Assembly: GCA_963735595.1 (NCBI GenBank)
Contig: CAVTLK010000005.1
Coordinates: forward strand, 544,001-608,000
DNA length: 64,000 bases
Direction: 5' to 3'
Source: an uncultured delta proteobacterium
Lineage (GTDB): Bacteria > Desulfobacterota > Zymogenia > Zymogenales > Zymogenaceae
In this document: positions 3,726-37,487 of the stretch, piece after piece
How the letters are laid out: the number at the start of each line of letters is the position of its first letter
Numbering within the stretch: position 1 is the first letter of the stretch
The notes under the pieces: model-generated
What the model was told of the DNA's origin: nothing
The model's database searches: none
Seen by the model: the letters and a program-made list of their open reading frames with translations, nothing else
Program-made: the position numbers and the translations under genes

Positions 3726-5345
3726 CTACTTGGCCGGGCATTGAATCTTCTTCAGCTTTTCGGCATAGACGAAGTTGTCGTCGTTTTCGGGGTTGTGGCA
3801 GGAGATACAGTCGGTCGCCGAGGTGAGGTGGCGCATCTTGTTGGCCGTGTTGTCCTTGACGTGCAGGCTCCCCGGTCCGTGGCAGACCTCGCACTGGACG
3901 CCCAGGAGGTCCTTCGCCGTCAGGATATTGTTGAATCCCCCGGGCTTGCGGTAGCCGGTGGTGTGGCAGGCGATACAGTTCGGCTCGAACTGCCGCTCGT
4001 CTTCCCGGAGGGTCTCATAGGCCTTCACGTGTGCGGTCCCGGAGACAAAGGAGTATATCCTGGTGTGGCATACTTTGCAGCTTTCCATCCCCACGTAGTG
4101 GGGCTCGACCGAGAGAGAGGAGGTATCACGCCTGCCTTCCTCGAGCAGCGATTCCTTTTCCTGGTTCTTTATCTCCAGGAGCTTGTCGGCGTACTTCTTG
4201 AAAATACCCCTTACATCCGGGTCGTCCGCAAGGCTCGCATCCAGAGCGATCAGGGACGCCGTCACGGTGTTCGGATGCTCCGCATCCGGCCCCTCTCCCA
4301 GCTTTTCGAGCCTCTTATTTACCTGCTCCATTTCGTCGGTGACGACCTCTTCGATCGCTGCGACGTCCTTACCCTCTTTCTTCTGGGCCTCGATATCGGC
4401 AATGAAGATATCGAGCTGCTTCTTCCTCATGATCAGCTCCCGGTGCTCGAAGGAGTCCGATTTTTCGCTTCCTGCAATAAAGAAGTTATAGGGGCGTTTG
4501 GTATCGCCGATCGAGAAATCCAGCCGGTCGATATACTTGCCCCGGGCGAATATCTCGGTAATCAGGGTGTTTTTCTCGGTGATCGGCTGGTAGAGGTTGA
4601 TATCGCCCCCGTGGCCCACGATAATCAGGTCGACGGCGTCAAAGCCCTTCGCCAGGACCTTGGCGTCGTTGGTGCCGGTATGGGCGAGCACCACGATGAA
4701 GTCGGCCTTGTTCTCAAGCTCCCGTATGACGGCGGCCAGCGCGTTCTCCGGATCGGATAGGATGATCCCGAGCTCCTCCTGACGCGTGGCCTTAAAGTCC
4801 GTATCCTTCCCGATGACCGAGGTTATGCCGACCCGAAATCCGTTGACCTTGACGACGGTATAGGGCTCAAAGACGTACTTATTGGTCTTCGCGTCCAGTA
4901 CGTTGGCGGCAATAAACGGGAAATCGGCCGTCTTTTCGAGGTCCTTGAGGTAGTCCAGACCCAGCGCGAATTCCTTTTCGCCCAGCCCCAGGGCGGTCCA
5001 TCCCATCGCGTTATACGACTCGATGATCTTCCTGCCCTGGATAGCAAGCGTGATGTCGGGGTCGTCGCCGTAGTTATAGTCATGGAACAACAGGTCGCCC
5101 GCGTCCAGGAGGAGAAGGTCCTTAACTTCTTCCCGCACCGTACCGATATATGTCGCCTTTCTTGGCAGACCGCCAATTTGGTTGGATTTTCACCCACAGG
5201 GCTCGGTCTCGCCGAGGACATCGTTGCTGTAGACGATCGTGAAGTCGGCGGCCGGCGGCGTGTAGTTATCGCAGTACGATACGCCCATAAAGATGAAGAA
5301 GAGAGCCAGAACTATCGCGATGTTGGGCCGGAGGGTCTTACGCAT
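3726..5345 (-). CDS. UshA-like (5'-nucleotidase N-terminal fold) selenoprotein fused to a tetraheme cytochrome c domain; Sec at codon 52
   Basis: ATG at 5345 follows GGAG. Signal peptide, then ...YSNDVLGETEPCG-TGA-KSNQIGGLPRKATY, in frame with track ORF 3726..5138. Four CxxCH motifs: CKVCH, CIACH, CEVCH, CISCH. Confidence 0.85.
5162..5176 (-). promoter_or_regulatory. Putative bacterial SECIS hairpin
   Basis: UUGGC-GGUCU-GCCAA stem-loop starts 13 nt after the in-frame UGA (5192-5190). The apical GGUC resembles the E. coli fdhF SECIS. Confidence 0.75.
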
Positions 5346-9543: not shown

Positions 9544-9987
9544 TCAGTAGTTATAGTACGTGTCGTTGTAGTTGTCGTATACGTTGTAGTACATGTCGCT
9601 GTAGCTGTCGGAATAATTGTAGTAGTTGAAGGCGTCCGAATAGTTATAGTAGGTGGAGTTCGTGTAAGCGGTGTACGTGTCGTTATAGTTGTCGTATACG
9701 TTGTAGTACATGTCGCTGTAGCTGTCAGAATAATTGTAGTAATTAAAGGCGTCCGAATAGTTATAGTAGTTGTTATAGCCGCCCCCGCCGCCGTCCGAGT
9801 AGTTATAGTAGAGGTTCGCGTACCCGCCGTAACACTCGTCCTGGCCCTGCGTTACGACGGCGGTGACGCCGAGGGTGCCCAGCAGCGCGGCGCCCTTGGC
9901 CATACGCACCAGCGCCTCGCGCCGGCTGAGCTTCTCCGGCCGTTTCGTTACTTCTTCCTGGGATGTTTTCTTCTTCTTGTCTTTCAT
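9544..9987 (-). CDS. Tyr/Asn/Asp-repeat protein with SRRE leader; candidate RiPP precursor or secreted repeat protein
   Basis: Leader KLSRREALVRMAKGAALLG followed by a core of YxN/YxD triplets. An internal duplication differs only at synonymous sites. Own sigma70-like promoter. Confidence 0.8.
   Translation of the reverse strand: MKDKKKKTSQEEVTKRPEKLSRREALVRMAKGAALLGTLGVTAVVTQGQDECYGGYANLYYNYSDGGGGGYNNYYNYSDAFNYYNYSDSYSDMYYNVYDNYNDTYTAYTNSTYYNYSDAFNYYNYSDSYSDMYYNVYDNYNDTYYNY
9556..9768. repeat. Intragenic duplication: 96-bp unit, 117-bp period (9556-9651 and 9673-9768)
   Basis: Both copies encode YYNYSDAFNYYNYSDSYSDMYYNVYDNYNDTY. The 4 nucleotide differences are all synonymous third positions. 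Confidence 0.95.
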
Positions 9988-10096
9988 CGGTGCTGCTCTC
10001 GGGTATTCGTTTTCTGGATACGAACCGTTGTGATGAGATCCCCCGCCGATGGCTGTTACCCAATGTCAGCGGCGTCCCCCTGTTTATGTTAAATAT

Positions 10097-10125
10097 ACTA
10101 TACGTGATGCGGCCCGATGTGTCAA
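10097..10125 (-). promoter_or_regulatory. Sigma70-like promoter of the Tyr-repeat gene
   Basis: TTGACA-17 bp-TATAGT on the minus strand. Confidence 0.7.
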
Positions 10126-20082: not shown

Positions 20083-20334
20083 CTAGAACCCGCTGCCGAA
20101 TCCCGATCCGCCGGAGTTGTCGTGGAAGTTGTTGTTCATATCCCCCGGGACCGCGCCGCTCCCCGGCAGGGTCGCCGCGCCGTTGTTAGAATTCCCAAAA
20201 TGGCTGGAGTCCGAAGCAGCGGGGGGGGGCGGAGGCGGCGGCGGCGGAGGCGGATCCATGGAAACGGCGAAAGCAAACGCCGCGAGTAAGGAAACTGCCG
20301 TAAGGGCAAAGAATAAAATTCGTAAAGCTTTCAT
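20083..20334 (-). CDS. Small secreted protein with a poly-Pro tract and G/S/N-rich tail
   Basis: AAGGAG RBS, signal peptide, poly-Pro run with mixed codons, C-terminal GSGFGSGF. Confidence 0.7.
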   Translation of the reverse strand: MKALRILFFALTAVSLLAAFAFAVSMDPPPPPPPPPPPAASDSSHFGNSNNGAATLPGSGAVPGDMNNNFHDNSGGSGFGSGF

Positions 20335-20482
20335 ACAACGCTCCTTTTACTGAATCAACGGTTCAAGTATATGGGCATATCTCCGCCGAGTCAATATTTA
20401 TCTTGACAAAAGATAAGATTATTTTACTATAACATCAATATTATCGTCGTTCCATAACCTCTCAGAGCACATGGAGGATAGC

Positions 20483-21958
20483 ATGCTCAAGAAAATCGTC
20501 CTGATCTGTCTGGCAACGGCCGTCCTGGCGGTTCCGCTGTATGCCGCGGAGTGGCAGGACAACCCCGTTTTCATCCGCGGTGTTCAAAAGAACACGATCT
20601 TCACCTACTACGGGACAAGCTTCGGCGGTGGTGACTTCAGCTCGAGGTCCCATGTCCTCGAGACAATCCCCTACGCCCGCCTTGTCATGGCCGACAATGA
20701 TGCCTATATTCATTCCCTTTATGTCGGCTACGTCCATAACCTCTCGGCCGAGCGGAATTTCGGCGCCTTCGTCAGCCATGGCCTGACGTGGAGCAGCTCC
20801 GACGGTCTCTATTACCAGACCTTCCCCACCACCGGGAACTACTACACCGAGAGCTACCGGGATAAGGTCCTCAACTGGGACACGCGCCTGGACCTCGTCT
20901 ACTCCCAGAAGCTCACCGACCGCCTGGCGCTCGGCGCGGCCTTCACGTTTGCCTACACCGACCTCACCGAGAAGACCCATTACGATACGATCGATAGTTC
21001 GGCCGGTTTTGGATTCCGCACGTACGAGTACGCCCTCACCAGCAGCCGCTACAATCTTGCCGGGACGATCGGGGCGGCCTTCAAGGCGACCGATTCCCTC
21101 GAGCTCGACCTGGCCCTCGAAGCGGGCGGTTTCTTCGGGACAAAGGGGTATGAGGAGCACCTCCTCAACTATGAGGATCTCGGCGAGCGGCACGACTACG
21201 ACAACACGGGCGGCCTCGACGGGTTTACCGTCAGGACCAGGCTCGACGGGAAATTTAAGCCCTCGCCCTCGTTCACGATTCCCTTCCGGTTTGCCTATAC
21301 CCACGCCCGCGGACTGGAGAAGTACGACGGCTTCGGGACCTATACGCCGTCGGCGGGCGCCGCGGGCCCCTACTGGAAGGACTACCGCTCCTACTACAAC
21401 ACTAACCGCTTTGACCTCGGCGCGGGCGTGAACCTCTACCCGAAGGGTGACAAGGGGATGGAGGTCTTCCTCTGGGCGCTCTACGCCTATAAGTATGGGG
21501 ATGAGCACCGGTTCAGCACCACCGACAAAACCGGCGTCGGCTTCAACAACGACATGACCGATACCGTCGTGAGGTTCAACAACCATACGGTAGGCCTCTC
21601 GGCCGGCGTAAACGTGCCGATCACCGACGCGCTGAAGCTCTCCGGCGGTCTGAGCTACTCCTATACCTTCCTCAACCTCCGCGAGAATCAGAATTACTAC
21701 CGTAACCTGGCCCAGATCAGCTACTACGACTACGACGGCACGGGATATGAGCGGTCTCTCGCGGCAAACATCGGGATATCCTATATCACGGGCAACCTCA
21801 AGACGACTCTCACCACCTCGATCCCTATCCTCTACAAATCGGATTACCGCCTGGGCGGCGCGCACACCTTCCCCGCCCTCTTTGGGGGCGACCCGATCGG
21901 CTACACCTCAGAGCGTCGCGATTATTCGATCATCCTGTCGATGTCCTATAGCTTCTGA
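20483..21958 (+). CDS. Putative outer-membrane beta-barrel protein
   Basis: Signal peptide, alternating Tyr/Gly-rich amphipathic strands, C-terminal SMSYSF. GGAGG RBS. Confidence 0.75.
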   Translation: MLKKIVLICLATAVLAVPLYAAEWQDNPVFIRGVQKNTIFTYYGTSFGGGDFSSRSHVLETIPYARLVMADNDAYIHSLYVGYVHNLSAERNFGAFVSHGLTWSSSDGLYYQTFPTTGNYYTESYRDKVLNWDTRLDLVYSQKLTDRLALGAAFTFAYTDLTEKTHYDTIDSSAGFGFRTYEYALTSSRYNLAGTIGAAFKATDSLELDLALEAGGFFGTKGYEEHLLNYEDLGERHDYDNTGGLDGFTVRTRLDGKFKPSPSFTIPFRFAYTHARGLEKYDGFGTYTPSAGAAGPYWKDYRSYYNTNRFDLGAGVNLYPKGDKGMEVFLWALYAYKYGDEHRFSTTDKTGVGFNNDMTDTVVRFNNHTVGLSAGVNVPITDALKLSGGLSYSYTFLNLRENQNYYRNLAQISYYDYDGTGYERSLAANIGISYITGNLKTTLTTSIPILYKSDYRLGGAHTFPALFGGDPIGYTSERRDYSIILSMSYSF

Positions 21959-36659: not shown

Positions 36660-37487
36660 GTGGGACGGGACCTCAAGGCCGAAAACCTGGCGATCTCGGT
36701 GCCGAACGCCGGGTGTGACAAGAACTGCCCCTACTGCGTCTCGCGCATGACCGGCTACGTCACCAACGACTACCCGAGGATGCTGCGCAACGTCAATAAG
36801 GTTATCCACGTCGCCCGGGCCGCCGAGGTCACGTCGGTCCTCTTTACCGGCAAGGGGGAGCCGACGCTGGTCTATCGGGAGCTTATCGAGTTGGCCGGCC
36901 TCTTCAACTTCTGGCCCCTGGAGCTTCAGACCAACGGGATAGGGCTGTCGGACGGCGACGATTCGCTGCTATCGGGGCTTTACGACGCGGGGTTTGACGT
37001 GGTCGCCGTATCCATCGACAACAGGAAAGAGCTCGACGCCTACCGTGAGCTCTTTTCGCGGATCGGGCGAGCCGGGCTGATCTCTCGCATCACCGTCAAT
37101 ATCACCGACCTCCTGGGCGAAATTACCTTTTCGGAGCTTCTGACCTACTGCCGGACAAACAGGATCTCCCAGCTCACGCTCAGGCGGATCGTTACCCCCG
37201 AAGACCCGAAGGACGCCCGGACGGCGGATTGGATCGCGCGTCACGCCCACGACAGTGACTATCGCTCGCTCATGGAGCAGGCGCGGTTATTCGTATCCGA
37301 GCACGGGAAACTTATCCGCACGCTCAACCACGGGGTGGAGGTCTACGACTGCGGCGGCGTCTCGTTCTCCTACAGCGATTACTGTATCCAGGAGCATAAC
37401 CTCGGAGACAACGTCCGCTCCCTGGTTTTCCTCGAGGACGGCCACCTCTACACCTCATGGAACTCCCCGGCGTCTATCCTCTTTTAG
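36660..37487 (+). CDS. Radical SAM protein without a SPASM domain
   Basis: CDKNCPYC, TGKGEPT and LQTNG motifs. Confidence 0.88.
   Translation: MGRDLKAENLAISVPNAGCDKNCPYCVSRMTGYVTNDYPRMLRNVNKVIHVARAAEVTSVLFTGKGEPTLVYRELIELAGLFNFWPLELQTNGIGLSDGDDSLLSGLYDAGFDVVAVSIDNRKELDAYRELFSRIGRAGLISRITVNITDLLGEITFSELLTYCRTNRISQLTLRRIVTPEDPKDARTADWIARHAHDSDYRSLMEQARLFVSEHGKLIRTLNHGVEVYDCGGVSFSYSDYCIQEHNLGDNVRSLVFLEDGHLYTSWNSPASILF

Follow-up and report, generated by a model that had tools for sequence, protein, structure and literature searches.

The Tyr-repeat gene and its locus

The gene under study lies on the minus strand of the window (the whole 64,000-nt stretch of DNA that was analysed) and encodes a 147-aa Tyr-rich protein, with genes for an acyl-CoA ligase and for a 2-oxoacid:ferredoxin oxidoreductase (beta/gamma) as its flanks (Table 1). 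The open reading frame, the quoted leader (aa 19-37) and the gene's own sigma-70-type promoter were all recovered as the initial annotation had described them, and the flanks confirmed that no modifying enzyme or exporter adjoins the gene. The leader runs from S-R-R-E-A-L through a hydrophobic stretch (aa 32-45) to T-Q-G-Q-D-E-C. The 95-aa core has 33 Tyr and exactly 22 Y-x-N/D sites with zero overlaps, while 20,000 shuffled cores of the same composition gave a mean of 8.9 and a maximum of 16; when the second duplication copy was removed, 13 sites were left against a shuffle mean of 5.3 and a maximum of 12. The triplets cover 66 of the 95 core residues, so the earlier count of 22 non-overlapping triplets was right and the statement that the core consists "almost entirely" of them was somewhat overstated. 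The duplicated 32-aa block is identical at the protein level in its two copies, and the 4 nucleotide differences between them are all synonymous, as had been noted; the chance of such a result is 0.0004 for all changes, or 0.011 if only transitions are considered.

Table 1 Positions of the precursor gene and its features in the window
Feature	Position	Strand	Basis or remark
Precursor gene, 147 aa; unlinked (satellite) Tyr-repeat family member	9544..9987	(-)	28 homologous clusters
Sigma-70-type promoter TTGACA-17-TATAGT	10097..10125	(-)	109 nt upstream of start; 11/12 match
Basic, variable n-region (aa 1-19)	9931..9987	(-)	5/8 amino-acid changes vs G003 ortholog fall here
Conserved leader, Tat-type signal (aa 20-52)	9832..9930	(-)	Identity to paralogs and G003 ortholog
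Cys52, candidate lipidation site, box Q-D-E-C	9832..9834	(-)	Invariant in 26 aligned family members
Core (aa 53-147), 22 tandem Y-x-N/D, predicted crosslink sites	9547..9831	(-)	Triplet count
Duplicated 32-aa block, copy 1 (aa 74-105)	9673..9768	(-)	
Duplicated 32-aa block, copy 2 (aa 113-144)	9556..9651	(-)	Four synonymous differences

The same 32-aa duplication was found in the orthologs of two genomes of the same genus (G002 and G003) and of metagenome contigs L111 and L117, which also have the flanks of the window in common. The TTGACA element was kept 103-111 nt upstream in 3/3 orthologs with a start found (G002, G003, L111), and a promoter-like site with at least 9/12 matches was seen at 13/14 precursor copies, a count made without shuffle control. 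Directly 3' of the gene there was no terminator-like site (fold z -1.3). Comparison with the G003 ortholog gave a dN/dS of 0.026/0.168, with a leader dN of 0, and comparison with the G002 ortholog gave 0.087/0.92. The precursor gene is real: purifying selection acts on it, and relatives keep it in synteny. One metatranscriptome contig spans 9799-10002, where it differs at 11 of about 204 nt, and has a depth of 2.7 (word shares at most 0.16), but it was not counted as evidence because contigs cannot show transcription.

Pfam and NCBIfam gave no match to the precursor at E up to 10, PADLOC gave none at 0.001, and the atlas returned only unnamed clusters (at most 0.90, low recognition). The AlphaFold model had a pLDDT of 42 and a core without order, which says little about amyloid; this low-confidence model places a helix at aa 22-47 in the leader. 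Elsewhere in the window, a UshA-like (seleno)protein at 3726-5138 (-) scored above the NCBIfam cut-off, and since the called ORF begins within the family model, there may be a selenocysteine codon further upstream. In the region 20083-21958, the minus strand holds an 83-aa Pro-rich ORF that looks secreted, and there is also a 495-aa Tyr-rich protein that resembles an outer-membrane protein and was unmatched in NCBIfam. A 275-aa protein with a radical SAM motif at 36660-37487 (+) had no NCBIfam match at 1e-10.

Paralogs and a radical SAM cassette in the same genome

Protein search gave 28 clusters, all of them with the same leader and a Tyr-rich core. Only three ORFs in the 3.6-Mb genome (G000) reach at least 8 Y-x-N/D per 30 aa, and the leader is common to all three. 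The other two stand in tandem on a different contig (G000:C2:452.5-453.6 kb), and 26 and 27 of 33 leader residues are identical to those of the precursor, as compared with 33/33 in the G003 ortholog. The word "orphan" in the initial annotation therefore holds for the locus and not for the genome. The paralog pair lies directly upstream of its enzymes in a radical SAM (rSAM) cassette (G000:C2:447.5-453.6 kb), in the order rSAM1 (343 aa, its C-terminal cysteines conserved), a 290-aa protein, a DynA/DarE/anSME-like rSAM/SPASM-GT9 fusion and an Lgt paralog. The precursor is a detached extra copy whose sister copies adjoin a radical SAM set. The proposal that the peptide becomes a poly-cyclophane in trans thus gains direct genomic support from paralogs beside two radical SAM enzymes, the crosslinks themselves being predicted.

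Among 41 related genomes, peptide matches were found in the own genome and in 8/9 genomes of the same family, as against 0/31 of other families. The 290-aa protein (hereafter pseudo-rSAM) occurred only in peptide-bearing genomes, 7/9, and the two misses were at contig edges or incomplete. The same cassette layout with one to five precursors was seen in G002, G003, G005, G006, G007 and G008; in G009 the cassette is cut after rSAM1, and in G001 the contig is cut inside the precursor. G005 also has an unlinked precursor copy elsewhere, which has 21 triplets and lacks Cys. An AriB-like gene, followed by an ATPase-like fragment, is about 0.9 kb away from this copy (L028:9819-13297). In G002 (L019:7150-9999) rSAM/SPASM, GT9 and Lgt form one 949-aa frame, which may be a real fusion or an assembly indel, and in G005 the Lgt start overlaps the GT9 stop. 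In the window's own family, a pilin-like gene follows the cassette Lgt on the opposite strand (L030:13019-13540 and equivalents), with a weak PilA match in the G007 copy.

All four enzymes of the own cassette carry single-base indels (1.4-8.2 per kb), as would be expected if the cassette were truly pseudogenised and the satellite peptide a leftover that is no longer matured. We read these indels as assembly errors, because the flanking housekeeping genes also have 0-5.6 indels per kb, the cassette has no in-frame stops, and its dN/dS against G003 is 0.01-0.28 (0.01 for rSAM1). The similar indel rates of the KamA, AspK and FadB-like genes and the open cassette frames in metagenome contigs L116 (to the contig end) and L119 also argue against a leftover, which we consider extremely improbable. 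Scattered single-base insertions break many genes, among them the KamA, AspK and FadB-like ones, within G000:C2:444000-470000, so gene calls in that region are unreliable.

A SPASM pair at G000:C2:474-477 kb was also considered as maturase and was rejected, since it is SynChlorMet-like and comes with a PqqD and a Cys-rich precursor of its own. This SynChlorMet-like cassette (G000:C2:472900-477500; L017:12928-17527) contains a ScmF-like rSAM (355 bits, cut-off 400), a second SPASM rSAM, a double PqqD/ScmD, a nucleotidyltransferase-like gene and an 84-aa Cys-repeat precursor.

Distribution of the cassette across phyla

When rSAM1 was used as bait in GTDB genomes, 95 loci were confirmed and the best 80 were kept. 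According to the record titles, the loci range over Bacteroidota, Acidobacteriota, Nitrospirota, Spirochaetota, Chlorobiota, Planctomycetota, Elusimicrobiota, Fibrobacterota and others, and the window's own family accounts for 5 of the best 80. Besides the bait, which is in every locus, the best 80 of the 95 loci have the pseudo-rSAM (77), the DynA-like enzyme (75), GT9 (51) and Lgt (4); the missing DynA-like enzymes are at contig ends, and Lgt is part of the cassette only in the window's own family. A Tyr-rich precursor with R-R-x-A-L/I/M-K-R was found by regex in 68/80 loci and by eye in two more (L065 and L080), which makes 70 of the best 80 loci. Most of the 10 loci in which no precursor was seen appear to be at contig ends. 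No peptidase or ABC exporter recurred as a cassette part, and the cassette was not found in viral contigs. A Thorarchaeota-titled record (L097) has a full cassette with precursor, where transfer or mis-binning is possible. A second DynA-like rSAM/SPASM gene is present in L046, L048, L049, L050, L061 and L079, and L079 additionally has a second, diverged pseudo-rSAM.

In 77 precursors, Tyr was followed by N/D/S at +2 in 1213/2066 cases against 703+-16 in shuffled sequences, position +3 was depleted, and 612 sites were exactly 3 apart against 118 expected. Three kinds of core occur, with Y-x-N/D, Y-x-S or Y-x-R triplets. The core net charge is -10 (taken from the G003 ortholog of identical length), and cores are Arg-rich in G007-G009 and acidic in the sister genera. 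The Arg-rich Y-x-R cores of genus g5 (L025:9976-11001, L026:3952-4900, L029:1817-2161) have a net charge of +11 to +18. Fusions of the precursor to Peptidase_S74 (two) or Lcl_C (one) were observed at L093:8595-9350, L080:11890-12666 and L108:6603-7583. A search of 7,999 candidates gave no longer, fused precursor forms, and this null result is weak because fusions are present in L080, L093 and L108. Peptidase_S74 and Lcl_C are trimerising domains, and their fusions hint at trimeric fibres.

The initial annotation had offered, as an alternative, a Tyr/Asn-rich amyloid-like or structural protein that is exported by Tat without modification and works independently of any cassette. A Tyr/Asn-rich low-complexity core, an own promoter, the lack of an adjoining enzyme and the few members with Peptidase_S74 or Lcl_C domains would suit such a protein. 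We nevertheless regard it as highly improbable: family members stand beside the cassette in 70/80 loci, the pseudo-rSAM is confined to peptide-bearing genomes, and the leader is more conserved than a signal peptide needs (dN 0 against G003). The lack of an ordered core in the model points the same way, weakly where amyloid is concerned. The export part of that alternative is probably true together with the cyclophane reading and is not a rival to it.

The main rival as to function is that the same biosynthesis gives an envelope barrier against phage DNA entry like that of the HXS system, which would be compatible with the explanation preferred here. The logic of HXS is alike: a precursor with a signal peptide and aromatic-x-small repeats is served by two rSAM enzymes and a helper (available text of PMC13128918). 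A patchy spread across phyla, several variable precursors per genome, the Arg-rich cores of G007-G009 and the AriB-like neighbour of the unlinked G005 copy would also agree with a defensive role. However, PADLOC at 1e-10 matched only 4 of the 127 nearest flanking ORFs, which were mechanically picked with no control set, and the matches were apparently to generic domains; the core is acidic while HxsA is basic and DNA-binding; and the own-family loci are syntenic among housekeeping genes. We therefore consider a phage barrier rather unlikely.

Proteins of the cassette

The 290-aa protein fell into no known family, and above the Pfam and NCBIfam cut-offs the cassette proteins had no match other than generic rSAM, SPASM, GT9 and LGT domains. 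The DynA-like enzyme scored best on the DynA, anSME, DarE, DarW and cyclophane-synthase models, far below the curated cut-offs (at best 142/450 bits for DynA, 108/650 for DarE and 108/650 for DarW), and it is closer to DynA and anSME than to the cyclophane-synthase models. It is homologous to ChlB (E 9e-16) and matched the YhhB, AmcB, GrrM, FxsB and XyeB models, also far below the cut-offs. It keeps eight SPASM cysteines like anSME, while ChlB is without the first set. rSAM1 had no characterised family match beyond its first 100-130 residues.

The pseudo-rSAM belongs to a family with 358 representatives at 50% identity. Its model had a pLDDT of 96, and the best fold match was ChlB (Z 13.9, rmsd 3.9, 269 aligned), although anSME and CteB-type entries came within about 1 of it, in effect a tie; Foldseek alone gave no match at E 0.001 or better. 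The CxxxCxxC motif was found in 0/137 rows (first 120 residues), and the C-terminal cysteines are kept. As this motif is missing while the fold of the model matches rSAM/SPASM, the protein is a predicted pseudo-enzyme of the rSAM/SPASM fold.

Two active rSAM enzymes, one of them unmatched over most of its length and the other with anSME-like cysteines, could also indicate that the cassette acts on the same substrate by other chemistry, such as a Tyr-O ether of the DarE type, epimerisation, hydroxylation, dehydrogenation or an HXS-like composite that needs both rSAM enzymes. HXS, the nearest analogous system, gives +8 Da and not a plain -2 Da crosslink (available text of PMC13128918). Such chemistry is less expected from triplets that stand head-to-tail without overlap, and from a covariation at the position that governs X3 specificity in triceptide enzymes (see below); we give it a minor share of the probability.

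Covariation of an enzyme residue with the third triplet residue

What defines triceptides is a bond from an aromatic residue to C-beta within a three-residue motif, and D214 of HtkB and H204 of HaaB influence the preference for the third residue, X3 (available text of PMC11499958). In the gene sequences of the supplement to PMC11499958, this residue stands directly after D-F-L-L-P or D-F-G-L-P, and column 194 of the DynA-like enzyme aligns (HMMER) to the Asp of ChlB DFLLPD. We scanned the enzyme columns against precursor class in 21 N/D and 22 Ser loci, with mixed and Arg loci left out, and column 194 was the top covarying column (0.91 vs 0.60 bits). Over the 55 loci with at least 5 sites, 20/20 loci with Tyr or Thr at this column had 74-100% N/D at X3, and 30/30 loci with Leu, Ile or Val had at most 62%; in the other 5/55 the residue is Lys, Asp or Arg, and Lys or Arg occurs in 3 N/D loci. 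In the own genome it is Tyr, which fits Y-x-N/D.

However, the class changes only three times on a tree built without the column-194 columns. Independent pairs gave 2.8/3 in the same direction and none opposite (sign test p 0.25), and with mixed loci included, leave-one-out prediction succeeded in 51/55 loci for column 194 vs 49/55 for the next columns, which is a small lead. With only three independent switches, the tracking of precursor X3 by column 194 is suggestive and not significant, and it gives a one-residue test. In rSAM1, no column split the precursor classes cleanly.

Leader, probable export and possible further modification

The twin-arginine motif S-R-R-E-A-L is followed by a hydrophobic region with a mean hydropathy of 1.9. 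The Tat consensus has Phe where the precursor motif has Ala; in 74/77 precursors this position was Ala, with a regex that allowed A, F or V, and a K-R-x-A-K tail after the motif is conserved in the same set. In the best 80 of the 95 loci, tatA was present in 10 and tatC in 5, although some Bacteroidota tatA neighbours may be the housekeeping copy. The tatA-tatC pair comes directly after the precursor in L076, L088, L096 and L107, tatC comes after the precursor in L123, and in L108 tatA separates the precursor from rSAM1. All of tatA, tatC and lspA are present in the own genome, and family leaders end in a lipobox-like Cys or in A-x-A sites. We infer that the leader doubles as a Tat signal and an enzyme leader.

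It might instead be an enzyme-recognition helix only, with a product that stays inside or exits otherwise. The Ala in place of Phe and the conserved K-R-x-A-K extension would agree with this, as would the non-canonical processing of HxsA (available text of PMC13128918). Against it stand tatA/tatC directly after the precursor in three Spirochaetaceae and two Bacteroidales-type loci, the tatA of L108, the lipobox-like or A-x-A leader ends and the lack of a recurring peptidase or ABC exporter, which together make a purely recognitional leader unlikely.

Lipidation of Cys52 by the cassette Lgt paralog is speculative. The canonical lipobox is [LVI][ASTVI][GAS]C, and Q-D-E-C is not canonical; even a relaxed box was found in 0/11 own-family precursors, as against 13/34 Cys-bearing leaders overall. 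The cassette Lgt is 43-45% identical to the lspA-linked Lgt. A His of E. coli Lgt has a catalytic role, and at its position there is Gln in the cassette Lgt and Tyr in the lspA-linked copy. Three Lgt homologs were found in G000 (C2:129250-130029, C4:292333-293094 and C2:447497-448253), of which only that at C2:129250-130029 keeps the E. coli-type His motif. As for GT9, the median Ser content of the core was 0.234 in the 44 loci with GT9 vs 0.092 in the 15 loci without, kinship not corrected, and these Ser-richer cores hint that GT9 glycosylates Ser.

Proposed pathway and role

The explanation that we favour, with moderate confidence and from comparative sequence evidence, is that the gene encodes an extra precursor for the cassette under a promoter of its own, and that this precursor would receive Tyr cyclophanes in trans and then be exported. 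It is very likely that the helical R-R-x-A-L/M-K-R-x-A-K leader is recognised by the cassette enzymes and that these modify the peptide in trans, with the SAM-less pseudo-rSAM/SPASM protein probably serving as a scaffold or leader-binder. The DynA/DarE-like rSAM/SPASM enzyme would then, as seems reasonably probable, abstract a C-beta hydrogen of Asn/Asp and join this carbon to the ring of the Tyr two residues earlier, which would give up to 22 tandem three-residue cyclophanes with -2 Da each. The second rSAM enzyme would add a further modification. It is likely that the leader acts as a Tat signal and that the rigid product leaves through Tat. More speculatively, GT9 may glycosylate Ser and, at a similarly low level of confidence, the Lgt paralog may lipidate Cys52, and such a product would be an acidic, rigid, membrane-tethered envelope rod.

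The most likely role is an envelope or surface structural element and not a small diffusible antibiotic, because there are an export signal, lipobox variants, a glycosyltransferase and fibre-type fusions, and no recurring peptidase or ABC exporter. A wider reading, which we offer tentatively and think somewhat doubtful, is that Tat-signal peptides are turned into long poly-cyclophane rods of at least 20 strained rings, glycosylated by GT9 and lipid-anchored in some lineages, with several separately promoted precursors feeding one machine. In the window's own family a dedicated Lgt paralog would then read the non-canonical Q-D-E-C box, the dead rSAM paralog would be a scaffold, and the precursors, some of them far from the cassette, would be interchangeable subunits of a cell-envelope material.

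If this is true, radical SAM ring formation builds not only short antibiotics but also, in many uncultured and gut-associated bacteria, long, rigid, exported protein polymers, and the cassette would provide a processive enzyme set for tens of Tyr cyclophanes. It would also bring a second rSAM enzyme, a large pseudo-rSAM family and possibly a new lipidation route. Satellite precursors such as this one are missed by neighbourhood-based mining. In the literature searched, no description of the system was found, and the main triceptide surveys, which were outside that search, may include the enzyme among their uncharacterised clusters; the available text of PMC9062424 and PMC10288494 does not show the system, and their readable supplements contain none of the motifs. 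What the analysis adds is a satellite locus that is conserved, covariation between enzyme and substrate, the trend of GT9 with Ser and the connection with Lgt.

Comparison with known systems

The TIGR04114/PF27846 family has a superficially similar S-R-R-E leader, and the initial annotation had linked the precursor to such targets. This link was not borne out: neither the precursor (NCBIfam, E up to 10) nor the scanned relatives matched TIGR04114, there was only an atlas lead of 0.83, and the family is a Cys-Xaa-Xaa-Xaa target while the precursor core is Tyr-based, with one Cys only in the precursor.

HXS (HxsA/B/C/D; TIGR03976-03979) is alike in its exported aromatic-x-small precursor, its two rSAM enzymes and its non-catalytic helper (available text of PMC13128918). 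It differs in that the cassette enzymes are not HxsB/HxsC orthologs (26-59 bits on the HxsB model vs a cut-off of 370), and in that the present system has a helper of pseudo-rSAM fold, Tyr and not His, no peptidoglycan-binding domain and an acidic core; the precursor core contains no His, and the 290-aa protein gave no HxsD match.

DarE, DarW, DynA and MicB are alike in that DynA is the best NCBIfam model for the cassette enzyme, at 142 bits, and the DarE-like MicB makes Tyr triceptides (available text of PMC12912966). Their products are short and proteolytically released, whereas here there is a 95-aa tandem array and no recurring peptidase.

The triceptide enzymes (XncB-XyeB, OscB-GrrM, MscB-FxsB, ChlB, YxdB, YhhB, HtkB and HaaB) are alike in their aromatic-X2-X3 triplets and in an rSAM/SPASM enzyme homologous to ChlB without an N-terminal RRE extension; suggestively, the residue at the X3-specificity position of the cassette enzymes also varies with X3. 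Among them, YxdB makes a crosslink from Tyr C3 to Asp C-beta, and XncB and OscB make aromatic-Asn links (available text of PMC11002830). The present system differs from them in having up to 20-50 sites per precursor, a Tat-type leader, unlinked precursors, a second rSAM enzyme with pseudo-rSAM, GT9 and Lgt partners, and an enzyme that scores below the curated cut-offs and has eight SPASM cysteines.
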